Source of the DNA: an uncultured Bdellovibrionales bacterium
Lineage (GTDB): Bacteria; Patescibacteriota; Minisyncoccia; Moranbacterales; UBA9337
Length of the DNA: 64,000 nucleotides
Direction of reading: 5' to 3'
NCBI GenBank assembly: GCA_964605525.1
Contig: CAZSCV010000003.1
Coordinates: 4,227-68,226 of the forward strand
Shown here in pieces: positions 33,853 through 55,908 of the stretch (within the stretch, counting starts at the first letter, position 1; every line of letters begins with the position of its first letter). Position numbers and translations under genes: made by a program. Under the pieces are notes generated by a model. The model saw only the letters and a list, made by a program, of their open reading frames with translations. It did not search any database and was not told where the DNA came from.

Positions 33853-34653
33853 TTATTCAACACTGATCATAATTTTTTTTCCAGTAGTCACATTTCCTCC
33901 ATTCCAATCGTGAAGTGCATTCATCAATACAGATGCCTTGTATATATAGTCCGCTCCTTTTCTGGTTCCTGGATCATTGGTAATGAAATCTCCTGATTTT
34001 GTGTATCCTTTGACAACGAGCATATGATAGATTGGTCCCGGTTGTTTGAAATTCGGATTACCGAGCTGTTGTCCGGCAAAGGGAAGGATTAATACTTTGT
34101 TTTCCGCCAATGCGTTTTGAATGTCTGTGATAGAAGGATTATTGATGATAGCTATATTTTTTAAGTTAAAATATTCTCGGAGAACCATAGCTGTTTCTTC
34201 GATAGTGGTATCTTGATAAAATCCAAGTTTTTCCATTTCGAATTTTTGGAGTGCTTTTAATTTTTTGTCAGCATCTTCCGGATCGGAAATCGTTTGACTT
34301 TTGGCATAGCTGGCTGCCATTAGCATCGATGCTTCTTCGCAGAATTCTTGGTAGGGCATATTCCAGTTTTGATGTGGCGATTGGGATGTAAAAGGAACTT
34401 TCAAGTTTACGTATTCGGGCAGTGTCTGGATATTTTCCAGAGCAGATTCTGAAGATGATGACGGAGGATTTGTGTTTTCGGAAGATTCTGGAGGGGTGTC
34501 TGCCGTTTGCGTTATTTCGGACACTTCGGAAGAAGGAGGGATGGAAATAACGGAAGAAGTGGAGGGCGGATCGTTTTTGAAATCGAAAAAGAACCATCTC
34601 GCTGAAACGAGTATAAAAATAACGAAAATTATGAATAAATATTTTAATTTCAA
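33853..34653 (-). CDS. secreted C39-like peptidase-domain protein
   Basis: N-terminal TM helix, a P/S-rich linker and a C-terminal C39_2-like domain (NLKVPFTSQSPHQNWNMPYQEFCEEAS...YHMLVVKGY). Confidence 0.5.
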   Translation of the reverse strand: MKLKYLFIIFVIFILVSARWFFFDFKNDPPSTSSVISIPPSSEVSEITQTADTPPESSENTNPPSSSSESALENIQTLPEYVNLKVPFTSQSPHQNWNMPYQEFCEEASMLMAASYAKSQTISDPEDADKKLKALQKFEMEKLGFYQDTTIEETAMVLREYFNLKNIAIINNPSITDIQNALAENKVLILPFAGQQLGNPNFKQPGPIYHMLVVKGYTKSGDFITNDPGTRKGADYIYKASVLMNALHDWNGGNVTTGKKIMISVE

Positions 34654-34792: not shown

Positions 34793-35263
34793 ATGAAAAT
34801 AACTAATTCTTTTTCGCCAGCCGAAGCAATGATTTGCCTGTCACATAGACTTGAATTGATTGCTGATAAATATATTTTTAAGCCGATGGGCTTGTCCTCA
34901 ATTAGTGTAAAAATACTGATGTTGTTGAAAAATGGGAGTCAGATGACTGTAAGTGAGTTGATTAAAAAAACTGGAGCGACAAAGTCGAATATGAGTCAGC
35001 GACTGACTTTTCTGGAAAAGGAACAATATATCACCAGGAATTATGCCAGCGACAGTAATGATAAGCGCAAAGTATTAATTAAGCTCACTTTTTCCGGGAA
35101 GAAAAGAATAATTGATTTGAAAAAAAGATTGGAAAAGGCGCAAATTTCTTTTGAAAAAAAATTTACCGCCAAAGAGGTTTCCCAGCATAAGGATTTTATC
35201 AAAAAAATGAATTTGATTCTTGATAATGAAGAAGATAAATTGGAAAAAATATTTAAGTTTTAA
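34793..35263 (+). CDS. MarR family transcriptional regulator
   Basis: wHTH QMTVSELIKKTGATKSNMSQRLTFLEKEQYI. Confidence 0.75.
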   Translation: MKITNSFSPAEAMICLSHRLELIADKYIFKPMGLSSISVKILMLLKNGSQMTVSELIKKTGATKSNMSQRLTFLEKEQYITRNYASDSNDKRKVLIKLTFSGKKRIIDLKKRLEKAQISFEKKFTAKEVSQHKDFIKKMNLILDNEEDKLEKIFKF

Positions 35264-35271
35264 AAAATTAT

Positions 35272-36381
35272 ATGAATAAGAAAAAAATTATCGTATCTAT
35301 ATTCGTGGTCGCAGTTGCTTTTTCTGCGTCTGCAATTTTATCTGGAAAAAAACCGGCATCATCCCAGGATGCGCCCAGGAAGCCTATTGGTATTTTTGTT
35401 CAGTCAGCTGCCGATAGTAAAATAATCGTGCAAAAAAATCAATTTCCGGCAATGTTTGTGGGAGATCAAGAGATTAAAATTACTGCAAAATCCGCCGGAA
35501 CGGTTGTGAGTGCCACAGGCGATATCGGAAGTAGGGTTGCAGTGGGATCGCTGTTGGCGAGAATTGATGATTCCGGATCATTGGCGGTCGGTGAAAAAGG
35601 TTTTCAAAATATTCAAGTTCAGCAATTGCAACTCGTAGCGGAGCAGGCGAAAAAATCCTATGGTCTTGCAAAAGATGAATATGCCCGCTTGAAGGATTCT
35701 AGCAGTGCAAGCAGTGCAGAAAAAGACAGCGCCAAAACTCAAAGAAATATTGCAAAATTGCAGTATGAAAATGCGATACTCGGTCTTAATGGTTCAATTG
35801 ATAGTCGCTTGATTACAAGTCCGATTTCCGGGGTGATTACGAATAAGGCTGTTTCTGTTGGTGATTCTGTTTCTGTTGGACAGCTCATTGCCGTCGTCAG
35901 TAAATCTTCTAATATTAAAGTTCAATTTTATGTCGATCAGGAGCAACGCACTTTGTTGAATTACGGGCAAGAAGTTGTTGCGCTGGACGATGCCAATAAT
36001 TCAATTCCGTTGATAATTCGAAATATTTCAGTTGTGGCGGACCAATCTACAAAACGCTTTTTAATTGAAGCTTATCCTAAGAATCGTGACGCGAAAGGAT
36101 TGTTTTCTGGAACAATTGCAATCGTTGATATTGAAAATATAATAAAACCAAGCATAGACAGTAATTTTATTTTGCCATTGTCCGTAATTAATGTTGGTCA
36201 AAATGAAGATTATATTTTCACGGTTGAAAATAATATTGTTAAAAAAGTCATTGTGGAGATCGTGAAGGTTAATGGGGAAACTGTAGAAATTTCCGCTCAA
36301 ATTTCTCCGGAAACTATGATTATAACAGATGGCAATAAACTCGTGCAGGAAGGGGAGAGTGTAGAAATAAAAAGGCAATAA
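35272..36381 (+). CDS. RND efflux periplasmic adaptor (membrane fusion protein)
   Basis: N-terminal TM helix with lipoyl and beta-barrel domain motifs (SLLARIDD, ITSPISGVI). Confidence 0.7.
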   Translation: MNKKKIIVSIFVVAVAFSASAILSGKKPASSQDAPRKPIGIFVQSAADSKIIVQKNQFPAMFVGDQEIKITAKSAGTVVSATGDIGSRVAVGSLLARIDDSGSLAVGEKGFQNIQVQQLQLVAEQAKKSYGLAKDEYARLKDSSSASSAEKDSAKTQRNIAKLQYENAILGLNGSIDSRLITSPISGVITNKAVSVGDSVSVGQLIAVVSKSSNIKVQFYVDQEQRTLLNYGQEVVALDDANNSIPLIIRNISVVADQSTKRFLIEAYPKNRDAKGLFSGTIAIVDIENIIKPSIDSNFILPLSVINVGQNEDYIFTVENNIVKKVIVEIVKVNGETVEISAQISPETMIITDGNKLVQEGESVEIKRQ

Positions 36382-36391
36382 TAAATAAATT

Positions 36392-39300
36392 ATGGATAAT
36401 CAGAAAAAAAATAGTTTTCAATCGTCAGATTCTGCGTATTTGGAAAAGTTGGAATTCAGGCCTGAACTCAAAAAAACTTGGCTTAATTTTTTTGTTTCAA
36501 ATTTCCGAGTGGTTATTCTTTTGATAATTTTAATTTCCGGCTGGGGGATGTATTCTTTTTTGCAGTTGCCACGCGAGTCGAATCCGGAAGTGAAAATTGC
36601 TACTGCGATTATTAGTGCGTCATATCCCGGAGTGCCTCCTTCTGATATGGAAGAGCTTGTTACGAAGAAAATAGAAACCGCTATTTCTGGTGTAAGCGGA
36701 ATTAATAAAATCACATCCACTTCAGCAAATTCATCTTCAACCGTAGTGGTTGAATTTGATGCTGATCAAAATATCGACGAAGCAATTAGAAGATTGAGAG
36801 ATAAACTTCCGGCAATTAGAAATGATATTCCTGAGGATGCATCAGATCCGCAAGTAATGGAAATTTCACTGGACGACACCCCGATTGTAACTTTTGCTCT
36901 TGTTGGTCCGTATGATGGATTTACATTAAGAACATATGGAGAAAAAATTCAAGATGAATTGGAAAAAATTCCCGGAATCAGGGAAGTGAACATTTCCGGA
37001 GGAGATCAATCAGAGTTTGAAGTTGCTTATGATCCGCAAAAATTGGCACTTTATAATATTTCTGTTGAGCGGTCAAATCAAGAAATTTCCGCGGCAAATC
37101 ACGCGATTCCTGCTGGAAATTTTGAAGGGTCGGAATTCAATAATCCTGTTCGAGCTGATGGTCGATTTTATACCGCCAAGGATTTGGGTGAAATTCCGAT
37201 TTTTCATACCGAACAAGGAGCGGTGGTTTTCTTGAAAGATATTGCAGATGTTTCTGAGAAATCTATCGAGAAGACTATTTATTCACGTTTTTCTCTTGAT
37301 GGAAAAAAACCTCAAAATGCTATTACGCTGCAAGTTGTTAAGAGAACAGGCGGTTCAATTATTGAAACAGTAGACAGTGCGCAGAAAAAAATAGATCAAA
37401 TGATTAAAACTTTTCCGGCCGGAATTACATATGACGACACAATTAATCAGGCGGAGAATATCGGGAAAGATTTCAATCAACTGACTCACGACTTTTTATT
37501 AACGTTGTCTTTAGTGGTGGGAATTTTGTTTCTTGTTGTGGGATTAAAAGAAGCACTCGTGGCGGGAATTGCAATTCCGTTGGTTTTTTTCGTGACTTTC
37601 GGTGTGATGCAGGCAACGGGAACTTCTCTTAATTTTCTTTCGATTTTTGCATTGCTTCTTTCATTGGGTCTTCTGGTAGACGATGCTATTGTGGTGGTTT
37701 CTGCCACTAAGCAATATATGAAAACCGGAAAATTCACGCCGGAAGAAGCTGTTTTGCTGGTTCTTAATGATTTTAAAGTGGTTTTGGTTTCAACGACACT
37801 TGCCACTGTTTGGGCATTTTTACCTCTTTTAATGGCATCGGGAATAATAGGACAGTTTATCAAATCAATTCCTATTACCGTTTCTGTGACATTAATTTCA
37901 TCCCTTTTGATTGCTCTTGTTGTTAATCATCCTTTGGCGGCAGTACTTGAAAGGGTTAGGATGACAAAGAAATTATTTTGGCTTGTTTTTACTCTTGTTT
38001 TGGGATTGGGATTGTTAATAGTAGCGCGCCATTCGATTGGAGGATATGTATTCGCAGTATTTTTATTTGGTATTATAGTCCGGATGATTTTTTGGTATTT
38101 TAACAAGGGGGAAAATATTTTGCGGAAAAATGCAATTTTAGTTGAAAGAGAATGGGAGGATGATGAAAATATTAAACGGAAATTACTCTCTCAAGGAAAT
38201 CGGGAAGAGGCAACTTTTTTTGGAAAAATTATTCACGGAGTTATTCATTTTGATCGCGTTCTTCCAGTTTATGAAAAATATTTAAGAATGATTACGATGT
38301 CGCGAAAACGTAGGATTATCACCTTGCTTTCAGCAGTTATTCTTTTCCTTTTCGCAATAGCATTGCCAATTACCGGAGTTGTGAAAACTGAATTTTTTCC
38401 TGTATCGGATGGGGATGCTTTGTATTTGAGCATACGCGGACCGGTTGGTTTGAATTTAGATCAAACGGATGCAATTACTCAAGAAGTGGAAAAAAGATTG
38501 TTAAAAACTCCTGATATTGTGAATTTTTCTACAATCGTAGGTAATCCAGGATCAACTTCGAAAATCGGAGAAGGAGGATTGAATAATTCTAATACTGCCT
38601 CGATCACGATTAAACTCACAGATCCGGAAGATCGCAATATTAAGGCATATAATATTGCCGATGAAATTCGTCAATCTCTTGCTGATATTCAAGATGCGAC
38701 AATTACAGTTTCTACTCCTTCCGGCGGTCCTCCTTCCGGTAAAGCTTTTCAGGCACAAATAAGCGGAGAAAATTTGCAGACGCTGGATAAGATAGCTAAT
38801 GATTTAAAGCCACTAGTCGATTCTATTTCAGGAACAGTTAATTCGGATATTTCTCTTAAAGATGCACCGGCAGAATATACATTTATTCTTGATAGTGCAA
38901 AAATGGAATTGTATGATCTTAATACTGGCATTGTCGGATCTACTTTGCGTACGGCGATTTCAGGAACATCTGTGACAACAGTTATTCGTGAAAATAAAGA
39001 TGTAGAAGTGATCGCACGCTTTGCCAAGGATAAAATTCCAACTCTGGATGCTATCAGAAATTTGCAAATTTTGAATGCAAAAAATCAACCAGTTTTCATT
39101 AAGAATGTCGCGACCGTAAAATTAACTCCGTCAGTTGGTTCAATTTCACGCATCAATCAAAAACGGACAGTTTTATTGACGGCGGATGTGAGCGGAACCG
39201 CGAGTTCAACTGAAGTTGTTAAGGAATTTCAAAAAAAGATTGCAGAAGATTATTCGTTGCCGGAAGGATATGAAATAAGTTATGGAGGGGAAAATGAACA

Positions 39301-39802
39301 AAATACGGAATCCGTGCTTTCAATTATTCGCGCTATGGTTATTGCTATGATTTTGATTGTTTCAACGCTTGTGATTCAATTCAATTCATTTAAGAAGGCG
39401 ATTATTGTGCTCGTCACGCTTCCGTTGGCTCTTATTGGTGTTTTCTTTGGTATGGCTCTTTTGAAAGTGAATTTGAGTTTTCCCGGGCTTATTGGAATTC
39501 TTGCACTTTTCGGAATCGTAGTTAAAAATGCCATTATTTTGATTGATAAGATTAATCTTAATATTAAATCGGGAATTCCTTTTGATGAATCTGTCATTGA
39601 TGCGGGAAAATCCAGGCTCGAGGCGATTTTCATTACTTCAATCGTAACTATTGCTGGTATTATTCCAATCACGCTTTCCAATGAAACATGGACGGCTCTC
39701 GGTAGCGCTGTGATTTTCGGACTTTCCATATCATCATTCTTCACGCTGTTTATTGTCCCGACATTATATATGACATTTATCGATAAAAAAGAACGGTTTT
39801 AA
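36392..39802 (+). CDS. RND superfamily efflux pump (AcrB/HAE1-like)
   Basis: 1136 aa, 12-TM topology with two large periplasmic loops and conserved TM4/TM10 regions. Confidence 0.9.
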   Translation: MDNQKKNSFQSSDSAYLEKLEFRPELKKTWLNFFVSNFRVVILLIILISGWGMYSFLQLPRESNPEVKIATAIISASYPGVPPSDMEELVTKKIETAISGVSGINKITSTSANSSSTVVVEFDADQNIDEAIRRLRDKLPAIRNDIPEDASDPQVMEISLDDTPIVTFALVGPYDGFTLRTYGEKIQDELEKIPGIREVNISGGDQSEFEVAYDPQKLALYNISVERSNQEISAANHAIPAGNFEGSEFNNPVRADGRFYTAKDLGEIPIFHTEQGAVVFLKDIADVSEKSIEKTIYSRFSLDGKKPQNAITLQVVKRTGGSIIETVDSAQKKIDQMIKTFPAGITYDDTINQAENIGKDFNQLTHDFLLTLSLVVGILFLVVGLKEALVAGIAIPLVFFVTFGVMQATGTSLNFLSIFALLLSLGLLVDDAIVVVSATKQYMKTGKFTPEEAVLLVLNDFKVVLVSTTLATVWAFLPLLMASGIIGQFIKSIPITVSVTLISSLLIALVVNHPLAAVLERVRMTKKLFWLVFTLVLGLGLLIVARHSIGGYVFAVFLFGIIVRMIFWYFNKGENILRKNAILVEREWEDDENIKRKLLSQGNREEATFFGKIIHGVIHFDRVLPVYEKYLRMITMSRKRRIITLLSAVILFLFAIALPITGVVKTEFFPVSDGDALYLSIRGPVGLNLDQTDAITQEVEKRLLKTPDIVNFSTIVGNPGSTSKIGEGGLNNSNTASITIKLTDPEDRNIKAYNIADEIRQSLADIQDATITVSTPSGGPPSGKAFQAQISGENLQTLDKIANDLKPLVDSISGTVNSDISLKDAPAEYTFILDSAKMELYDLNTGIVGSTLRTAISGTSVTTVIRENKDVEVIARFAKDKIPTLDAIRNLQILNAKNQPVFIKNVATVKLTPSVGSISRINQKRTVLLTADVSGTASSTEVVKEFQKKIAEDYSLPEGYEISYGGENEQNTESVLSIIRAMVIAMILIVSTLVIQFNSFKKAIIVLVTLPLALIGVFFGMALLKVNLSFPGLIGILALFGIVVKNAIILIDKINLNIKSGIPFDESVIDAGKSRLEAIFITSIVTIAGIIPITLSNETWTALGSAVIFGLSISSFFTLFIVPTLYMTFIDKKERF

Positions 39803-39888: not shown

Positions 39889-42800
39889 ATGATTAAAATT
39901 AAGGATAGATTTTTAATCCTCATATTCCTGATGGTTGCTTGTGGATTAATATTCGGAACGAAAGCGAGTGCTGAAGTTAAAATACTGTCGGACTCACGTC
40001 ATGCCTACACTACTATTGTCAGCACTATAAATATGTTGCTTGGCGTTGGGCATGTTGGTACGGATGTGATAGTTCACAGTACTAATATGGGTACCTTGGG
40101 ACCATTTTCCACATCTTCTTCTATCGCCCTTAATTCATCCACGAATTATTATAATGAATCTGGAAATTTGGTGCCTTCGCAAGCCCCTTATCAACTGTTT
40201 ACAACTTCAGCAACAAACTATATTGGAGACACTGCTTCAGAATATGACTTATCGATTTCTAATGATTTGGCTCATAATTATGCTTATAGTGCGGCACTAC
40301 CGCAAAGTACTTTTCCCCCGATATTTCATATGGCTCCAGGAAGGGAGGGTGGTACTACGGGTTATGGAGTTGAGTGGAGATTGGATTGCACTGTGTTTAG
40401 TTGCAGTTCATTGTCCGGAATAACAGCTGCCAATGCCGGATTAATGGCATCCCTTCGTTATCTTCATCCTACTTGGAATTGGTTTGATGTGAAAGCGGCA
40501 TTGCGTCAGACTGGTACAAACTGGAACACTGGTTATGATCGCAATGCTTTTGGATTCGGACAAATTGATTATCACGAAGCTGATATTTTGGAAGATGATC
40601 AAATATTTTTGCAACCTCCGGTAGCAAAAATAGATACTGTATATACACAGTCTATAAGATTTCAGCTTTATCCTTTCAAACAAACACGCAGAGTCAAAGA
40701 TGTATTATTTCAATTTTCTTCAGCTCCGTCTTTTTATGGAGATGAATTGACGCTTGCTGAGTTAGAGATGTTGGGTGGCACTAAAATTACGGAATATTCT
40801 GGCGATGTTTCCCGAATGATTCAACCTTTGGATATTGCAGTAGTGAATGCTTATTTTGTTTGGTTGACGGCTGATAATATTGATGATGATTTGGCGAATT
40901 TTTCTCGCATTGATACTTATGGAATTTTAGGACCTTTGAGTCAATCTTCGGTGCGGATTGGAGGTGCATTTTCGGAAATTTCGGATGCAAACAGTGTAAC
41001 TGATGTTTTGGTGGACGAACAAAATGGAAAAATATATACCGTTGAGCGAACAGTAGATGGTAATGGTAGTATCGTTCGTATGGATGAAGGAGTGGATGGT
41101 TCTGTGTTTGGTGCCAATCCTTCAGATTTTTCGCAAATCGTATTAAGAACTCCTTCTCAAGCGGTACTGGATAGCATTAATAATAAGGTATATATTACCG
41201 ATTCTGGTAATAGTCGAATTGTTAGTGTGAATAGTGGTACGGGTGGCACGGTTTTTGGTGAAAATTGGGAATCTTTCGGTTCGGAGGGTTCTGGAGATGG
41301 TCAAGTTAGTTATCCTTTCGGAATTTCCGTAGACGGTGCTAATAATCGGTTATATGTTGCGGATGTTAATAATAGCCGAATTGTCAGTATGGATAGCGGT
41401 ACGGGTGGCACGGTTTTTGGTGAAAACTGGGAATCTTTTGGCTCAGAGGGTTCTGGAATTAATCAATTCTTGTATGCTTCTGGAATTTTTGTTGATAGTG
41501 CTAATAGTAAGGTTTATGTGAGTGATTATGGTAATAATCGCATTGTCAGTGTGGATAGTGGAGAAGGTGCTACTACATTAGGAGGAAACTGGAATGAATT
41601 TGGTACATATGGTTCAGGGGTTGGACAATTTGATATTCCAGATGGAATATATGTAGATACTTTCAATAATAAGATATATGTTTCTGATTTTTTTAATACT
41701 CGCATTGTTAGTATGGATAGTGGCGGCGGTGGCACTACGATGGGGAGTAATTGGAAGGAATTTGGTGATTCCGGCGTAGGAGCGGGTCAATTTTTGGCAC
41801 CTAGCGGTATTTTTTCTGATAGGGTTAATAATAAATTGTATATTGTTGATTCTTCATCTAACCGTGTGGTAAAAATTGACAGTGGTGAAGGGGGCACTGT
41901 CTTGGGTGGTAATTGGCAAGTTTTTGGAAGTTCAGGATCGGGAAGTGAACAGTTCAACAGTCCATTTTATATTTTCGGTGATAATGTCAATAATAGAATT
42001 TATGTCGGTGATTCAGGTAATGATCGTATTGTTGGAATAGATTCCGGAGAGGGTGGTACTGTGCTGGGAGAAAATTACGCATCAATTCCAATTGCGCCAT
42101 TTGGAGTGTCTAATCAAGTCGCATTGGACAATGAAAATAATAAATTGTATGTGGCTGATAGCGGAAATGATAATATTATGAAGATAGATAGTGGAGGAGG
42201 AGAAACTACCTTGGGCAATGTATTGGAGACATTCGGTGAGCATGGTTCACCAGAAGAAGGATTGTTTTTAGAACCTGATGGTATCGTGGCAGATAGTGTT
42301 AGTAATCGGTTATATGTTGCTGATTCCGGACATGATCGTATTATCAGTATGGATAGCGGAGAAAGCGGGACCGTTCTTGGAGAGAATTTGCAATTATTTG
42401 GCGTGCTTGGATCGGGAGTAGGACAATTTAATAATCCTACTGGAATTGCTGTGGATAATTCGAACGATAAAATATATATAGTCGATAATAGTAACCATCG
42501 CATCGTCAGTATGGATAATGGAGAAAATGGAACTGTTTTAGGTGAAAATTGGCAATCTTTCGGATCACTTGGATCAGGATCTGATCAATTTCGATTTCCG
42601 GAAGACATATTCTTTAGCGATGACAAACTATATGTAGCCGATACTGATAATAATCGCATCGTTATCATTGATAGTGGCAGTGATTTCACGAGTTTCGGTG
42701 CTAATTTCAATTCTTTTGGTGTATATGGTGATGGAAGTAGTGAAGGACAATTTAATAATCCGACTAGCGTTTCTGTGGATGCGCAAAAAAAAATTATCTA

Positions 42801-44997
42801 TGTTGTTGATTCAGGTAATGGACGTATTGTGCAGATTATTCCTCCAATTATGATTATTGGTCAGAGCCAGAATGATTATACATTGCAAAACCAGGTTATC
42901 GATTGTTCGGCGGATGAGGAAGTGGGAGTTTATGTTCAGTCGGGATTAGAAGGGACGAATTTTAATAATGTGACTTTTCTTAATTGCGGTATTAGCGCTA
43001 TATTACTCAGAAGTGAACTTTCTCAATCTAATAATTTATTGTTTGTCAATAATGCAAGTGCGGTTCAAGATGAGGTTGGTGGGTATACTTGCACCAATTG
43101 TTTTGATGACTCGGAGGATGGCGAATCTAATGTTCTTGCTTCAGGACAGCCTGATTGGAATTCTCCAGCCATAGACACTGGTATTACTGTTGTAGGAAGG
43201 GATGTTGATTATGCCGGAAATTCTATTTATGGCACTCCCGATATCGGAGCCTATGAATACCAACCGCCATATGAAATGGGAACGGACGAAGTGGATATTT
43301 CCGCCAATGTTCGGATTTATGGGGATGGGAAATTTCGAAACACTGAAACGGCCAGTGGAATTACGGCTAGCCTTTCTATTATTCCGCAGGGAAGCGGGAC
43401 AGAGAAATGGCTGGATATTACCAAGGCTGATGACGAAGAAGCGATTATTTGGGAAGCTAACCGCAAAAAATGGAAAGAATCTTCCACTACTCTCGGAGAA
43501 AATAGTACACTTCATACAATTGAAGATTTAACTGCGGGAAAATCATACACTCTTGCTATTGATGGTTCGTTAGTAAGCGAAGATCCGATGACTGGAAATA
43601 TTACCAGCTCTGATTGTATTGATAGTGCCTGCGTTGCTGATGATACTGGAGAAATCACCTTTAATTATATAGGAGGTTATTCCGATCACACATTTGAATT
43701 GACAGATAATGTTGCTCCAGTGATTACTGTTACTTCTCCCGTATCAGGAAGCGCTGTTTCGGCTGATGATACTATAACTTTCACCGATTCCGAAACCACT
43801 GATCCGGAGTGTTCCATAGACAATTCCAATTGGGTCAATTGCGTTAGTACTGTAACCAGTTTTTCCGACCTCACCAACTGGGATGACATCGCAGAAAGTG
43901 ATACCTTCACTTTGTATATGCGAGATACGGATGCTTCCAGTAATACCGGAACAACAAATGTTTCCAATCTCACCAAAGCCGACACCCAAGCCCCGGTGCG
44001 CTCGGAAGGTTTGCCTAGCAGTGAATTATCTTCCGGCACAACTTCCACAACATTAAGCCTCACTACCAGCGAAACAGCCACTTGTAAATATTCCAACACC
44101 CCCGGTACCGCTTATGCCGATATGACCGAATTATTTACAACGGAAGATGGCATTATTCATACCAAAGATATTTCCAATCTTTCCGATGGTAGTTCATACA
44201 GCTATTATGTGAGATGTCAGGATTTATCCGAAAATGCTAACGACACCGATTATCTTATTAGTTTTTCAGTAGCCAGTCCGCAAGATGTCGAAGAAGATAC
44301 TGATGAAGAAAAGGATCTTGATATTCATGGTGTTAAGGCGGAATCTACGGAAAATTCTATTACAATAACCTGGAAAACCGACCATAACACCAAATCAAGT
44401 ATTCGATATGGAGTAGATAGGAATCTCAAGGAAAAGAAAAAGGACAATAGTAAAGAGAAAAAACATAAAATCGTTATTGATGGATTGCAGTCAAATGTAA
44501 AATATTATTTCCGCATAAAAGCCACGGATAGCAACGACAATGAAGATTCAAGTAAAATTCATTCAATAATGACTAAAGCTACTCAAATTTCAATTACAAA
44601 TCAAAGTCAGGATGAAAATACAAGCCAGTCTTCAGCAGAGAACACGAATGAGTCAGTATATTCCGATAATTCAACTCCCAATATCTGCTCATACACAATC
44701 CAATCCGGCGACACTCTTTGGTCAATTGCCAAACAAGTCTATGGCGATGCTACTCAATACCAAAAAATCATTGAGAAAAACCAAGACAAATATCCCGATA
44801 TTGAAACAAAATTATCCATTGGGCAGGAATTATCTTTCGGTTGCGAAAACGATGATTCGAAAAATGACATAGAAAAGAATCTGGAATTAAGTGTGCCTAA
44901 TAACAATATTGAACCGCAACCCCAAATTAAAACAGAACCTAAGAATAATTCTTCTGAAAAAGTATTCAAGTGGTGGAATCCGTTTAGCTGGTTTTGA
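39889..44997 (+). CDS. giant secreted surface protein: N-terminal subtilase-like remnant, about 12 NHL repeats, Ig/FN3-like region and a C-terminal LysM domain
   Basis: Signal peptide. The repeated unit is N.(K/R)(I/L)YV(A/S)DSGN.RIV..DSG.GGT..G; a FN3-like block (ITITWKTD...YYFRIKATD); LysM (YTIQSGDTLWSIAKQVYGD...). Confidence 0.8.
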   Translation: MIKIKDRFLILIFLMVACGLIFGTKASAEVKILSDSRHAYTTIVSTINMLLGVGHVGTDVIVHSTNMGTLGPFSTSSSIALNSSTNYYNESGNLVPSQAPYQLFTTSATNYIGDTASEYDLSISNDLAHNYAYSAALPQSTFPPIFHMAPGREGGTTGYGVEWRLDCTVFSCSSLSGITAANAGLMASLRYLHPTWNWFDVKAALRQTGTNWNTGYDRNAFGFGQIDYHEADILEDDQIFLQPPVAKIDTVYTQSIRFQLYPFKQTRRVKDVLFQFSSAPSFYGDELTLAELEMLGGTKITEYSGDVSRMIQPLDIAVVNAYFVWLTADNIDDDLANFSRIDTYGILGPLSQSSVRIGGAFSEISDANSVTDVLVDEQNGKIYTVERTVDGNGSIVRMDEGVDGSVFGANPSDFSQIVLRTPSQAVLDSINNKVYITDSGNSRIVSVNSGTGGTVFGENWESFGSEGSGDGQVSYPFGISVDGANNRLYVADVNNSRIVSMDSGTGGTVFGENWESFGSEGSGINQFLYASGIFVDSANSKVYVSDYGNNRIVSVDSGEGATTLGGNWNEFGTYGSGVGQFDIPDGIYVDTFNNKIYVSDFFNTRIVSMDSGGGGTTMGSNWKEFGDSGVGAGQFLAPSGIFSDRVNNKLYIVDSSSNRVVKIDSGEGGTVLGGNWQVFGSSGSGSEQFNSPFYIFGDNVNNRIYVGDSGNDRIVGIDSGEGGTVLGENYASIPIAPFGVSNQVALDNENNKLYVADSGNDNIMKIDSGGGETTLGNVLETFGEHGSPEEGLFLEPDGIVADSVSNRLYVADSGHDRIISMDSGESGTVLGENLQLFGVLGSGVGQFNNPTGIAVDNSNDKIYIVDNSNHRIVSMDNGENGTVLGENWQSFGSLGSGSDQFRFPEDIFFSDDKLYVADTDNNRIVIIDSGSDFTSFGANFNSFGVYGDGSSEGQFNNPTSVSVDAQKKIIYVVDSGNGRIVQIIPPIMIIGQSQNDYTLQNQVIDCSADEEVGVYVQSGLEGTNFNNVTFLNCGISAILLRSELSQSNNLLFVNNASAVQDEVGGYTCTNCFDDSEDGESNVLASGQPDWNSPAIDTGITVVGRDVDYAGNSIYGTPDIGAYEYQPPYEMGTDEVDISANVRIYGDGKFRNTETASGITASLSIIPQGSGTEKWLDITKADDEEAIIWEANRKKWKESSTTLGENSTLHTIEDLTAGKSYTLAIDGSLVSEDPMTGNITSSDCIDSACVADDTGEITFNYIGGYSDHTFELTDNVAPVITVTSPVSGSAVSADDTITFTDSETTDPECSIDNSNWVNCVSTVTSFSDLTNWDDIAESDTFTLYMRDTDASSNTGTTNVSNLTKADTQAPVRSEGLPSSELSSGTTSTTLSLTTSETATCKYSNTPGTAYADMTELFTTEDGIIHTKDISNLSDGSSYSYYVRCQDLSENANDTDYLISFSVASPQDVEEDTDEEKDLDIHGVKAESTENSITITWKTDHNTKSSIRYGVDRNLKEKKKDNSKEKKHKIVIDGLQSNVKYYFRIKATDSNDNEDSSKIHSIMTKATQISITNQSQDENTSQSSAENTNESVYSDNSTPNICSYTIQSGDTLWSIAKQVYGDATQYQKIIEKNQDKYPDIETKLSIGQELSFGCENDDSKNDIEKNLELSVPNNNIEPQPQIKTEPKNNSSEKVFKWWNPFSWF

Positions 44998-48599: not shown

Positions 48600-49673
48600 A
48601 TGGGCAAGAATAATACTGTTAAAAAACGTATCGCCGTGATTTTTGGCGGGCGATCGGGCGAACATGAGGTGTCCTTGAAATCAGCTCATCAGGTAATAAA
48701 TGCTCTTGATAAGAATAAATACGAAATTATTCCTGTGGCGATAACCAAAGTCGGTTATTGGCTGGTCGGGGAAGGGGAAAAGGGACGGAAATATTTGGAG
48801 GATAATTTAGAAAAGGCTGATCATGAGGGTGGAGTAGAGAGTGGCGACATATCGGAATGTTGTAGTAAATTTCCGGAAAAATTCCCATCGGTTGATTTAG
48901 TATTGCCAATTATGCATGGCACATTCGGAGAAGATGGAAAATTGCAAGGAATGCTTGAGATGTTGGGACTGCCATATGTTTTTTCCGGAGTTTTGGCGAG
49001 CTCCCTGGCGATGAATAAAAGGAAAACTAAAATTATTGCAAAAGCTTCTGGTCTTAAAATCGCGAAAGACGTCATAGTTATTAGGGGTAAAAAATTTAAT
49101 GCGGAGAAAATCATTGCCAAATTAAATTTTCCAATTGTCATCAAGCCGAGTGAGTTAGGTTCATCGGTCGGAACTAGTTTGGCTAACTCCAAAGAAGAAT
49201 TGGAAAATGGAATTGAAGAAGCTTTTAAATATGGAGATGAAATTCTGCTCGAACAGTTCATAAAAGGACGCGAACTGACAGTGGCGGTGATGGGAGATAA
49301 ATCTCCAAAAGCTCTTCCTGTCATTGAAATTATTCCGAAAATTTCTGGCTGGTTTGATTATCGCGCTAAATATGAAGCAGGCGGTTCGCAGGAAGTTTGT
49401 CCGGCTGAAATTTCAGAAGAAATTCGAAAAAAAGTTCAACGCTATGCTGTCAAAGTTTTCAAAGCGGTGGGATGCCTTGATCTTGCCCGGGCAGATTTTA
49501 TTTGGAGCGTCGAAGATGGCAAATTATATTTTCTCGAAATCAATACTATCCCCGGCATGACCGCCACAAGCCTCGCCCCGCAAGCAGCAGCCGCCGCCGG
49601 AATGGAGTTTTCGGTTTTTTTGGACAAATTAATTGAGGGAGCAATAAAAAGAAACAAAAAAATACAGGGCTAA
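48600..49673 (+). CDS. ddl: D-alanine--D-alanine ligase
   Basis: KKRIAVIFGGRSGEHEVSLKSA with ATP-grasp motifs (PNSLGLM... on the opposite strand aside) and C-terminal EINTIPGMT. Confidence 0.9.
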   Translation: MGKNNTVKKRIAVIFGGRSGEHEVSLKSAHQVINALDKNKYEIIPVAITKVGYWLVGEGEKGRKYLEDNLEKADHEGGVESGDISECCSKFPEKFPSVDLVLPIMHGTFGEDGKLQGMLEMLGLPYVFSGVLASSLAMNKRKTKIIAKASGLKIAKDVIVIRGKKFNAEKIIAKLNFPIVIKPSELGSSVGTSLANSKEELENGIEEAFKYGDEILLEQFIKGRELTVAVMGDKSPKALPVIEIIPKISGWFDYRAKYEAGGSQEVCPAEISEEIRKKVQRYAVKVFKAVGCLDLARADFIWSVEDGKLYFLEINTIPGMTATSLAPQAAAAAGMEFSVFLDKLIEGAIKRNKKIQG

Positions 49674-54003: not shown

Positions 54004-54528
54004 TCAGCTCAGGAAGTCCACGCCAGCCTTCCTCTCTTCATCGTTTTCGTAAGCGTTGTGGGCCAGTCCGACGATAACATCGGCTATCATACCGGAAATC
54101 ATCTTGTCGAACCAGGGTTGAACGCCGGAACATGTCACGACGATACCCCGCCTTTTGACGCCGCCCCAGTAAGGTGTGTCATCTGAGAACAGCAGATGCG
54201 GAATAGGCATTGTGCGGTCATCGTTCCTGTCGGTCCAAAGCTGAAGCGCCTTGCACCGAGCAATGTTATCATAGGGATGTTCCCAACCCTCTTCTTTGCC
54301 GAGACTGTGCTCATAAAGAGACACAGCCTGAAGCGGATAGTTGGGCCAGTCAGGATAGTCGGCCTCGCGGTCGTCCTTCATGCCGGGCACCAGTATGACA
54401 ATGTGGCACTGCACCCGCTTGAGTAAGGGACGAAGTAGCGACGAATCTCCCATGACTGCGCCAAGAACTGCCTCGACTGCTTTACGTGCATCTTCCTCGG
54501 TGAGATACTTTGGTGTAATCAACTTCAT
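54004..54528 (-). CDS. hypothetical protein (GC-rich island, no recognisable family)
   Basis: 174-aa ORF at about 52% GC with strong codon periodicity. Confidence 0.45.
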   Translation of the reverse strand: MKLITPKYLTEEDARKAVEAVLGAVMGDSSLLRPLLKRVQCHIVILVPGMKDDREADYPDWPNYPLQAVSLYEHSLGKEEGWEHPYDNIARCKALQLWTDRNDDRTMPIPHLLFSDDTPYWGGVKRRGIVVTCSGVQPWFDKMISGMIADVIVGLAHNAYENDEERKAGVDFLS

Positions 54529-54546
54529 GTGTTCCTCCTTTGTCGG

Positions 54547-55908
54547 TTATTTCATTGCTTCGAGGATGCTTTCCTCGGTTTCTTTCTTTTCGGCTTGATG
54601 AACTGCATCCTCAGCATCTCTCTTTTCCCTTTCTGCAATCAGTTCGCGAACTTTTTCTACGAGTTCCTGGTCATCCGCGAACTCCTCAAGCATCTGGCCT
54701 GCCGCACGCCTCGTCTCCGCATCGTATACATGGAATCTTCCATATTCTTCCACATTTTTGATGACGGCGTATCTGGCGATTTTGTGCCGAAGCTCTTTAA
54801 AGGAGTCTGCGGACAAAAGCTCGAAGAAGTTGATAACATTGAAGGCATCGATCAGATGTTTGTTTGACTGAAGATTATCCACGAGGAACTGCACCTGCTC
54901 AATGAAGAACTTCTTGGAGTAGTGTAGGCCGTAGAACTGCATCTGAATGAAACTGGAATAGCAGCGCAGAGCGTCTTCATGCTCTTCTCTGGGCTTTGCT
55001 TTTCCTTCGATCTCGGCACGCACTATATCTCGCATCTTCCCGTCGGCCAACCTTTTCCATTTCTCATTGATGTCGTCGGAGTACATGAGGTTCCGGAAAG
55101 GATTGTATCCTGAAGCAAAATCCATATTCCAGAACGTTGAGATGTCATTAAGGGAATACAGCGGAAATATTTTTTCTGCCTGCTCAGCAGGAAGCTTTGC
55201 AAGCAGTTTCAGGATGCAGTGGTTGTAGAAGTGCAGCGCATCATGATATTTGTCGGGTATCGACATGTACACCATAATACCACCGCCACCTTCGGCAACA
55301 TTCCTCGGCCGATCGCAATGCATCGGACTCAGCGCAGTTACAAACTGTGTGATAAGCTCCGATACGTAACTCAGTAGATCGGGAGTCAGCTTGTCGAGGA
55401 TGTCTGACCTGTGATAAAACTTGCCAATATCTCCTTTCCAGTAAAGCGGGTTCACTGCAGCCGAAGGCACCATTAGCAGAAACAGTGCCCGCTTCTTGAA
55501 ACTATCGTTCACCTGCTGGGAAAGAAGATCGAGCAAGTCCCTTACTTCTCTGGACTTGAAGTCGACCCATTTTTTCCATTTCATATCTTCTTCCGTGGGA
55601 AACCACTTGCTTCTAAGTCTCTTGAGTAAAAACATCAGTCTTTCCATGATTTCTTCCTCCTGTGCTGTTTGCTCGTCAGACGGCTTCCAATGCCGTCCTT
55701 TTTTGGCTCTCCATCCCTGTCTCTTTTCCCGAAGCTCGTAAAGAAAGACGACTTCTCCAGGTTCCGGGTGCCCATGCTCCTGCCACACATTACGCTCCAA
55801 AGAGAACGTAACCGAGCCAGTGAACACCTGTGTGGTCGCAATGGCATACGGCCCGTGCGGTCCCACTGGAACAACTTTTTCAACTATGGCTTTTATGCCT
55901 TTTTCCAC
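54547..55908 (-). CDS. hypothetical 453-aa protein (GC-rich island, no recognisable family)
   Basis: Long ORF at about 50% GC. An N-terminal small beta-rich segment (VVPVGPHGPYAIATTQVFTGSVTF) is followed by a helical domain. Confidence 0.5.
   Translation of the reverse strand: MEKGIKAIVEKVVPVGPHGPYAIATTQVFTGSVTFSLERNVWQEHGHPEPGEVVFLYELREKRQGWRAKKGRHWKPSDEQTAQEEEIMERLMFLLKRLRSKWFPTEEDMKWKKWVDFKSREVRDLLDLLSQQVNDSFKKRALFLLMVPSAAVNPLYWKGDIGKFYHRSDILDKLTPDLLSYVSELITQFVTALSPMHCDRPRNVAEGGGGIMVYMSIPDKYHDALHFYNHCILKLLAKLPAEQAEKIFPLYSLNDISTFWNMDFASGYNPFRNLMYSDDINEKWKRLADGKMRDIVRAEIEGKAKPREEHEDALRCYSSFIQMQFYGLHYSKKFFIEQVQFLVDNLQSNKHLIDAFNVINFFELLSADSFKELRHKIARYAVIKNVEEYGRFHVYDAETRRAAGQMLEEFADDQELVEKVRELIAEREKRDAEDAVHQAEKKETEESILEAMK

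Follow-up and report, generated by a model that had tools for sequence, protein, structure and literature searches.

Gene, signal peptide, and subtilisin-like head

We analyzed a window of 64,000 nucleotides (nt; contig CAZSCV010000003.1 of assembly GCA_964605525.1, positions 4,227 to 68,226), in which a gene at 39889..44997 on the forward strand encodes a protein of 1702 amino acids (aa) and ends in a TGA stop codon. Coordinates and length are exactly those of the original prediction, an earlier reading of the DNA letters. The protein is deposited as TSD02104.1 ("hypothetical protein Athens071425_123"), and its source metagenome-assembled genome (MAG) is Parcubacteria group bacterium Athens0714_25, of the Candidate Phyla Radiation (CPR); the earlier label of a small-genome symbiont is thus correct. 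The DNA of the gene is byte-identical in two further assemblies, NCBI GCA_007376775.1 and an independent ENA k119 assembly. All features of the protein described below lie on the forward strand. Its N-terminal head has a divergent subtilisin fold, and its C terminus carries a LysM domain and an aromatic octapeptide that recurs on other proteins.

The signal peptide (aa 1-28; 39889..39972) consists of a basic n-region (MIKIKDR), a hydrophobic core, and a KASA|E cleavage-type site. Residues 1 to 20 form the sole strongly hydrophobic segment of the protein (the only one with a Kyte-Doolittle score above 1.6), and aa 5-22 are helical in the AlphaFold2 (AF2) model. The AxA site, directly before β-strand 1, is also aligned in the homologs. 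The predicted signal peptide is borne out by these features, and an N-terminal Sec signal peptide is their plain reading, from which we infer that the protein is exported.

Residues 29 to 240 (39973..40608) make up a divergent minimal subtilisin-fold domain, delineated with AF2, Foldseek, a family profile, hhalign, and residue conservation. It is followed by a β-sandwich domain (aa 241-355; 40609..40953) that was recognized by homolog alignment and AF2, bears the motifs YPFKQTRRVK...FSRIDTY, and is always joined to the subtilisin-like domain in the head family. A search with aa 1-380 alone returned nothing relevant from Pfam or from PDB sequences, and 78 homologs of this segment were found. 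An exhaustive comparison of the head family profile with 1.84 billion representative proteins yielded 204 matches at E ≤ 1e−3, 88 of them at E ≤ 1e−30. The family is rare, unnamed, and uncharacterized, with ~200 clusters. Among PDB sequences, its profile matched subtilases only (E = 0.03 to 0.09), and each time TPSGVTAQLAG...HPxWNW fell on the catalytic-serine box. Furthermore, 21 of 39 family members match Peptidase_S8 (PF00082) at E < 0.01. In an hhalign comparison of the family with subtilisin BPN′ (an approximate BPN′ sequence), S176 was placed on Ser221, and the Ser box with the helices that follow it was recognizable (SGITAANAGLMASLRYLHPTWNW in this protein). Because this alignment covered only the Ser-box half, the His and Asp equivalences rest on the order of secondary-structure elements.

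The AF2 model of the head, built from the family alignment, has a predicted local distance difference test (pLDDT) score of 87.7 and a predicted template modeling (pTM) score of 0.85. All top Foldseek matches of this model in PDB are subtilisins (E = 6e−5, probability 1.0, TM-score ~0.5 relative to 270-aa targets). Its secondary-structure elements come in the subtilisin order, except that the two N-terminal helices and strand 2 are missing. In the model, D35 stands at the end of strand 30-34, H38 lies at the start of the following helix, which begins at residue 37, and S176 opens helix 175-192. Following textbook topology, we take these positions to correspond to Asp32, His64, and Ser221 of subtilisin. 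D35 (39991-39993), H38 (40000-40002), and S176 (40414-40416) form a candidate triad.

To describe conservation at these positions, we used 53 diverse head-family sequences that are 22 to 61% identical to this protein. Position 176 is Ser in 52 of the 53 sequences, and position 38 is His in 49. Position 35 is more variable: it is Asn in 39 sequences, Asp in 8 (including this protein and its relatives P0114 and P0115), and Glu in 2. The fold, the Foldseek matches, the family profile, and the PF00082 matches of relatives all bear out the earlier suggestion that the N-terminal region is subtilase related, and the head domain is clearly subtilisin derived. The accompanying statement that it has no clear Asp and His catalytic boxes needs correcting, as candidate positions exist (D35 and H38).

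Standalone versions of ~350 aa, which have a signal peptide, the head, and the β-sandwich only, occur in Geobacter, Desulfuromonadales, and Thermodesulfobacteriota (loci L003 and L008-L024), and nearly all of them have Asn at the Asp-equivalent position. No conserved neighbors were found for them at 16 Desulfuromonadales/Geobacter-type loci.

NHL array and a homogenized tract within it

Between the head and the C-terminal half of the protein lies an array of 12 NHL units of ~54 aa each (aa 381-988; 41029..42852). The Pfam NHL model (PF01436) matches at E = 2.7e−37 with 125 bits (cutoff, 20), and the SGL, TEN_NHL, and DUF5128 propeller models match the same region. Solved six-bladed NHL domains also match the array, namely those of TRIM71 (E = 1e−29), Thin, Pizza6 (PknD-derived designs), and NHLRC2. 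The units follow the signature [KR]hYhxD..N.RIh.hDSG.GGT.LG.NW..FGS.GSG.GQF, and 12 unit anchors of the form [KR]hYhxD recur between aa 381 and 969 with a period of 162 nt, or 54 aa. The original count of about 12 NHL repeats is thereby confirmed. Since the number of units is 12 and is conserved in P0114, a natural inference is that the array folds into two six-bladed β-propellers.

A tract of 60 nt in NHL unit 2 (41236..41295) is identical at 56 of 60 positions (93%) to a partner copy in unit 3 (41398..41457), at an offset of 162 nt. None of the four differences changes an amino acid, and the two copies match without interruption over at most 29 nt. The best 60-nt window of any other pair of units reaches 77% (median, 67%). 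Two segments of ~80 bp had been described as more than 90% identical; the repeat itself is real, but 80 nt are only 85% identical, identity above 90% is limited to the 60 nt, and the offset is 162 rather than 160 nt. As whole units, 2 and 3 are 77 to 78% identical, where the mean over unit pairs is 57% and the next-best pair reaches 65%. Their codons differ by 17 nonsynonymous and 9 synonymous changes, which, with homogenization confined to 60 nt, speaks against the recent unit duplication that had been suggested. Because the tract is homogenized, all of its differences are synonymous, and the units have otherwise diverged, the pattern is best read as short-tract gene conversion. A potential for size variation had also been proposed; P0114, at 49% identity, has 12 units as well, two of which were recognized by direct reading of its sequence, and the number of units looks constrained. 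Presumably, propeller closure forbids their free expansion or contraction.

Stalk and LysM domain

The region C-terminal to the propellers was modeled in a second AF2 run that covers aa 1086-1702. Residues 989 to 1135 (42853..43293) are a remnant of a right-handed β-helix with a putative "choice-of-anchor Q"-type cap (...GTPDIGAYEYQPPY) and are homologous to the ends of the Beta_helix regions of relatives. The NCBIfam model choice_anch_Q (NF041518) scores 24.1 bits at aa 1091-1125, just below its cutoff of 25, and the motif GTPDIGAYEY is conserved in relatives, where it stands behind full β-helices. This region is of low confidence in the AF2 model.

Three immunoglobulin (Ig)-like β-sandwich domains follow as a stalk (aa 1162-1272, 1279-1363, and 1386-1461; 43372..44271; pLDDT ~80 to 97), and after them comes a fibronectin type III (FN3) domain (aa 1479-1561; 44323..44571; pLDDT ~90). 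The latter is matched by Pfam fn3 at aa 1482-1556 (E = 3.6e−8, 34 bits; cutoff, 25) and by Pur_ac_phosph_N (E = 1.3e−9). Foldseek relates the β-sandwich region to tandem Ig/FN3 ectodomains such as those of PTP-delta, contactin, titin, and fibronectin (E = 4e−11). A linker rich in Ser, Thr, Asn, and Gln (aa 1567-1597; 44587..44679) is predicted to be disordered, with low AF2 confidence. Ser and Thr together make up 31% of aa 1251-1480 and 36% of the linker (aa 1566-1598). With four β-sandwiches in the AF2 model, the fn3 match, and these compositions, the Ig/FN3-like region with S/T-rich stretches of the original prediction stands.

The LysM domain (aa 1601-1649; 44689..44835) was identified with Pfam, and AF2 gives it a β-α-α-β fold with pLDDT ~88. 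Pfam LysM matches aa 1602-1648 at 29.6 bits (cutoff, 20.9), or at 34.3 bits (E = 2.3e−8) when the tail is searched in isolation. Among solved structures, the LysM of Escherichia coli Kbp matches it best (E = 1.6e−5). LysM had been placed at the extreme C terminus; the domain is indeed present, but 53 residues predicted to be disordered follow it. They include a tail linker rich in acidic residues, Asn, Pro, and Gln (aa 1655-1694; 44851..44970), and AF2 confidence is low over aa 1655-1702. Neither NCBIfam nor Pfam detected a known sorting signal (LPXTG, PEP-CTERM, GlyGly-CTERM, the C-terminal domain of the type IX secretion system, and others), and the C terminus has no hydrophobic segment.

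C-terminal WWNPFSWF tag

The last eight residues of the protein (aa 1695-1702; 44971..44994) are WWNPFSWF, which occurs once in the window and is exactly conserved at the C termini of other proteins, among them P0083, P0087, and L118. In P0083, a β-helix head is followed by FN3, LysM, linker, and WWNPFSWF. The same series stands behind a metallophosphatase and LamG head in L118, a protein of 1355 aa, and P0087 has the C-terminal octapeptide without LysM. The FN3-LysM-linker-WWNPFSWF series is a cassette that recurs behind unrelated heads.

To place the octapeptide in a wider context, we scanned a metagenome collection with a back-translated pattern for WWNPF[S/T]WF and obtained at least 120 matches (loci L025-L144); by our own estimate, a handful would be expected by chance, and all counts describe a sample and not a census. 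In at least 12 matches a stop codon follows the tag directly, either in proteins of the LysM type (mean GC content, 0.39) or in lipoprotein-like proteins of 65 to 80 aa (0.32), and in at least 6 matches a stop codon follows within 6 residues (0.39). In at least ~38 matches, the tag lies 0 or 1 residue after an AxA signal-peptidase-type site (0.36), and in at least 5 it lies after an RHS-core junction and before a transmembrane (TM)-like segment (0.40). Two further families have the tag internally, the VRVKYVKE family (at least ~28 matches; 0.57) and the GLPT family (at least 6 matches; 0.65). Among the matches listed, ~25 fall outside these contexts, and the group with the tag after a signal peptide includes trypsin-like peptidases and lectin-like proteins. 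The terminal classes are on low-GC contigs, like the window (0.38), and the two internal families are on high-GC contigs. The internal families look unrelated to the terminal classes. Exact look-ups showed that tag-bearing proteins correspond to called genes.

Several of these groups have features of their own. The tiny lipoprotein-like proteins of ~65 to 80 aa (...GCSTYNS...; L027, L038, L045, L051, L076, and L117) combine a lipobox, an acidic linker rich in Ser and Asp, and a C-terminal SSWWNPFSWF, and they look like two anchors joined by a tether. In five RHS proteins (L035, L066, L068, L126, and L142), the motif comes directly after the DPxG of the RHS core, where the C-terminal toxin region begins, and in all of these except L066 a TM-like segment follows it. 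A high-GC family (GC content, 0.53 to 0.64; L025, L028, L032, and ~25 further loci) contains WWNPFTWF internally, within VRVKYVKERVWWNPFTWFGSRADSGRCGPFQDRLRW, and probably has no relation to the terminal tag.

By the Wimley-White interfacial scale, WWNPFSWF sums to about −6.8 kcal/mol, and among the matches listed the tag abuts a hydrophobic helix in several contexts. From this energy and the adjoining helices comes the idea, and it is only an idea, that WWNPFSWF might be a membrane-interface anchor. A literature search found no relevant description of a WWNPF motif, and no known sorting-domain model matches the tag.

Exchangeable middle and anchor in the head family

Comparison with relatives shows that the protein is a mosaic. 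Residues 1 to 368 share 57% identity with the head of a Yonathbacteria protein of 1208 aa, and aa 1092-1484 are 69% identical to P0081, a β-helix protein without such a head. About 35 full-length proteins of 1000 to 1400 aa that have the head were found in Yonathbacteria, Nomurabacteria, Minisyncoccota, and other Patescibacteria. These consist of the head, an Ig-like domain, a full Beta_helix, the same cap and β-sandwich module, and, mostly, a C-terminal PG_binding_1 domain, which ends L004, L006, L007, and many P01xx proteins. They share with our protein the head (46 to 57% identity over aa 1-368), the cap and β-sandwich module, and a predicted peptidoglycan-binding C terminus; they differ from it in having a full β-helix where it has 12 NHL units and PG_binding_1 where it has FN3, LysM, and the tag. 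They are annotated only as hypothetical or as "right-handed parallel beta-helix repeat-containing protein."

The only relative with the full architecture is P0114 (Joint Genome Institute; 1581 aa, 49% identity over 86% of the query), which has the 12 NHL units and no LysM. At its source, this secreted NHL protein carries an automatic and misleading label, "DNA-binding beta-propeller fold protein YncE." In P0115, the head is followed by degenerate propeller repeats, a stalk, and a C-terminal TM helix. The PWWEW motif and the TM helix of P0115 had raised the idea that our protein had lost a C-terminal TM anchor. This idea was ruled out, as the TGA of the gene is followed by more in-frame stop codons and there is no hydrophobic frame downstream.

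Across these sequences, the head is the constant, N-terminal part, the middle is exchangeable (β-helix or NHL), and the C terminus is repeatedly a putative envelope anchor (PG_binding_1, LysM, or TM helix). This pattern of a constant head and a recurrent C-terminal anchor is the main argument for an orientation in which the anchor is proximal to the cell and the head is distal.

Proposed function and alternative explanations

We hold, with moderate confidence, that the product of the gene is a Sec-exported surface protein, tethered by LysM and perhaps by the tag, that carries a stalk, two NHL propellers, and an atypical, probably active subtilisin-like head. After Sec export, the C-terminal end would hold the protein at the envelope of the producing cell, with LysM binding peptidoglycan noncovalently. 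The organism makes peptidoglycan, because its genome encodes D-Ala-D-Ala ligase (48600-49673, 3.6 kb downstream of the gene). The flexible stalk, composed of one FN3 domain, three Ig-like domains, and the β-helix remnant, would hold the working end away from the cell. There, twelve NHL blades, which probably fold into two six-bladed propellers, would form a platform for binding a ligand or substrate, and the subtilisin-fold head with its own β-sandwich would cap the propellers at the distal end. There, the head hydrolase may act on proteins of the surface of a partner cell or of the surroundings, with the propellers supplying the binding.

Because Ser176, His38, and Asp35 are kept at the topological positions of the triad, we favor the view that the head is a working but atypical serine hydrolase. 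The invariance of S176 and H38 argues for its activity, and the D/N variability at position 35, together with the lack of a conserved oxyanion Asn, argues against a classical mechanism.

Several findings weigh against this proposal. No PF00082 match was found for this protein even at E ≤ 10, and the matches in its relatives are confined to the last 49 profile positions (240 to 288). The Asp-to-His segment, ~30 residues long in subtilisin, is cut to two residues in the head; no propeptide was found in this protein; and Asn at position 35 is also present in the CPR relatives that are 57% identical. A conserved oxyanion-hole Asn was sought at aa 130-136, after strand 128-131, and none was found there, Asn130 being present in only 21 of the 53 sequences. 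At the other end of the protein, LysM could have as its target a host wall or chitin-like glycans, not the wall of the producer, and an additional anchoring role of WWNPFSWF at the membrane interface is pure conjecture.

The original prediction saw in the protein a giant adhesin, a candidate factor for attachment to a host or partner, with what could be a degenerate S8 domain repurposed for binding. The head would then be a catalytically dead pseudoprotease that serves in binding or capping, and the protein would only attach the symbiont to its host or partner. Such a role is plausible from the architecture, as NHL propellers and Ig/FN3 stalks are modules of the kind typically used for binding and spacing, and a dead head would agree with the missing S8 match, propeptide, and Asp-His loop, with Asn for the catalytic Asp in 39 of 53 family members, and with the lack of a conserved oxyanion Asn. 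However, the near-invariance of Ser176 and His38, which extends to members that are 22 to 33% identical, is hard to explain without a role in an active site, and Asp does occupy position 35 in this protein, as in P0114 and P0115, the full-length relatives nearest to it. Adhesion itself drew no support from this analysis. With Ser at position 176 in 52 and His at position 38 in 49 of the 53 sequences, loss of catalysis is arguably the less likely reading, and we regard a solely adhesive protein, although the strongest of the alternatives, as rather unlikely.

If the protein were instead secreted free, LysM, perhaps helped by the tag, might dock it to a bacterial host at either the peptidoglycan or the membrane, and the head and propellers would act there. 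LysM binds peptidoglycan of any origin, no covalent sorting signal was found, and secreted enzymes that act on the wall are commonly targeted by LysM or PG_binding_1 domains (see also PMC10936435). Yet the C-terminal TM helix of P0115, which bears the same head, can anchor that protein to its producer only, and the C-terminal position points to a self-anchor; moreover, a stalk this long is most readily understood as a device that sets the protein off from the surface of the producing cell itself. We therefore consider release as an effector improbable.

The segment LMVAC (aa 14-18; window 39889-39945) raises a third possibility, in which the protein would be an N-terminal lipoprotein attached through Cys18, with the head at the membrane and the LysM end reaching into the wall. 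FLMVAC18 resembles a lipobox and fits the PROSITE-type rule, but Cys18 is conserved in no close homolog, whereas the AxA site before β-strand 1 is. The resemblance is probably coincidental, and lipid attachment at Cys18 seems to us very improbable.

Finally, although internal repeats can mislead short-read assemblers, a misassembled repeat region or a decaying pseudogene is scarcely credible and was dismissed, given identical gene DNA in three assemblies, a longest exact repeat of just 29 nt, a frame that stays open over 5.1 kb to a true stop codon followed by further in-frame stops, and domains that all fold confidently in the AF2 models.

Returning to a tethered surface protein with a probably active head, an outside parallel comes from Paceibacteria that parasitize methanogens, in which extracellular proteins with peptidoglycan-binding domains are reported to be highly expressed (Kuroda et al., PMC10936435). 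That report is in keeping with the class of proteins described here. Our literature search on Parcubacteria with LysM or NHL domains, and on the MAG, found nothing specific beyond that report.

Comparison with known systems

Cell-envelope subtilases of Gram-positive bacteria, such as lactocepin PrtP and the streptococcal C5a peptidase ScpA, display a protease away from the cell surface. The logic shared with our protein comprises a signal peptide, an N-terminal head of the subtilisin fold, a long FN3/Ig-like spacer, and a C-terminal wall anchor. In contrast to those proteinases, which have a canonical S8 domain, a propeptide, a protease-associated (PA) insert, and LPXTG for sortase, none of which were found here, our protein has a far more divergent head, would be anchored noncovalently by LysM and the aromatic tag, and it has 12 NHL blades between head and stalk. 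The likeness, an analogy, is thus one of design and not of membership.

With subtilisin and Peptidase S8 (PF00082), the head shares the fold, the Ser box with the helices that follow it, and a His where the helix following strand 1 begins; it differs in scoring below every Pfam threshold, in lacking the N-terminal helices and strand 2, and in an acid residue that varies between D and N across the family. The NHL array resembles the six-bladed propellers of TRIM71/Brat-type proteins, the PknD sensor domain, and NHLRC2 in its repeat signature and its matches to solved structures, but its 54-aa unit has an extra loop (DSGxGGTxLGxNW), and twelve units stand in tandem in a bacterial protein that is predicted to be extracellular. 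Like E. coli Kbp/YgaU and other LysM proteins, ours has a single LysM with the signature YTIQSGDTLWSIAKQVYGD; here, a disordered linker and then a conserved aromatic octapeptide come after the domain. To our knowledge, such an octapeptide after LysM is not known from other LysM proteins.

The NHL, FN3, and LysM parts are typical of their respective families. What is new is a rare minimal head family with [D/N]-x-x-H, a lineage-wide modular design with interchangeable anchors, and the WWNPFSWF tag. As a tentative extension, we raise the possibility, doubtful in its joint form, that two linked novelties are present, the tag being an undescribed anchor and the head defining a new minimal clade of subtilisin-fold hydrolases. 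In this extension, the tag may be a position-independent chain-end anchor of secreted proteins of CPR-like low-GC bacteria, Trp-rich and binding the membrane interface or the envelope. It may form either the first residues after signal-peptide cleavage or the last residues of a protein, and here it may work together with LysM. The head, as modeled, may use [D/N]-x-x-H, in which the acid and the His are three residues apart instead of ~30, and may need neither a propeptide nor a canonical oxyanion Asn.

CPR bacteria rely on other cells, and almost all of their interface molecules are annotated as "hypothetical"; this locus offers a concrete, testable design. If the head is active, it would represent a pared-down clade of subtilases that escapes current domain libraries and that also exists in standalone form in Geobacter and Desulfuromonadales. 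Should the tag prove to be an anchor, it would add a new signal of very small size for surface retention, from which the surface proteins of uncultivated low-GC bacteria could be predicted. Failing both, the protein would simply be another large multidomain surface protein.

Genomic neighborhood

Upstream of the gene and on the same strand (window 34793-39802) are genes for a MarR/ArsR-type regulator, an HlyD-type membrane-fusion protein, and a 1136-aa AcrB-type resistance-nodulation-division (RND) transporter. The gap between the end of the RND transporter gene and our gene is 86 nt and contains no predicted terminator, and promoter and terminator scans around the gene gave results at chance level only. 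The regulator-HlyD-AcrB neighborhood is not common to the loci of the CPR relatives, and a possible co-transcription with these genes likewise lacks conservation. A search for conserved neighbors of the CPR relatives found none, and genomic context gives no clue to function.

Three further features of the window were seen. An RND efflux set is curious in a presumably single-membrane CPR cell. Just upstream of the regulator and RND genes, on the opposite strand, a gene at 33853-34653 encodes a Peptidase_C39_2-like protein (E = 8.6e−9). Finally, GC content has a local peak of 0.49, against a window mean of 0.38, at 54004-55908 on the reverse strand. This region contains two open reading frames of 453 and 174 aa, neither with a Pfam family at E ≤ 1e−5, and it could be foreign DNA or a noncoding feature.

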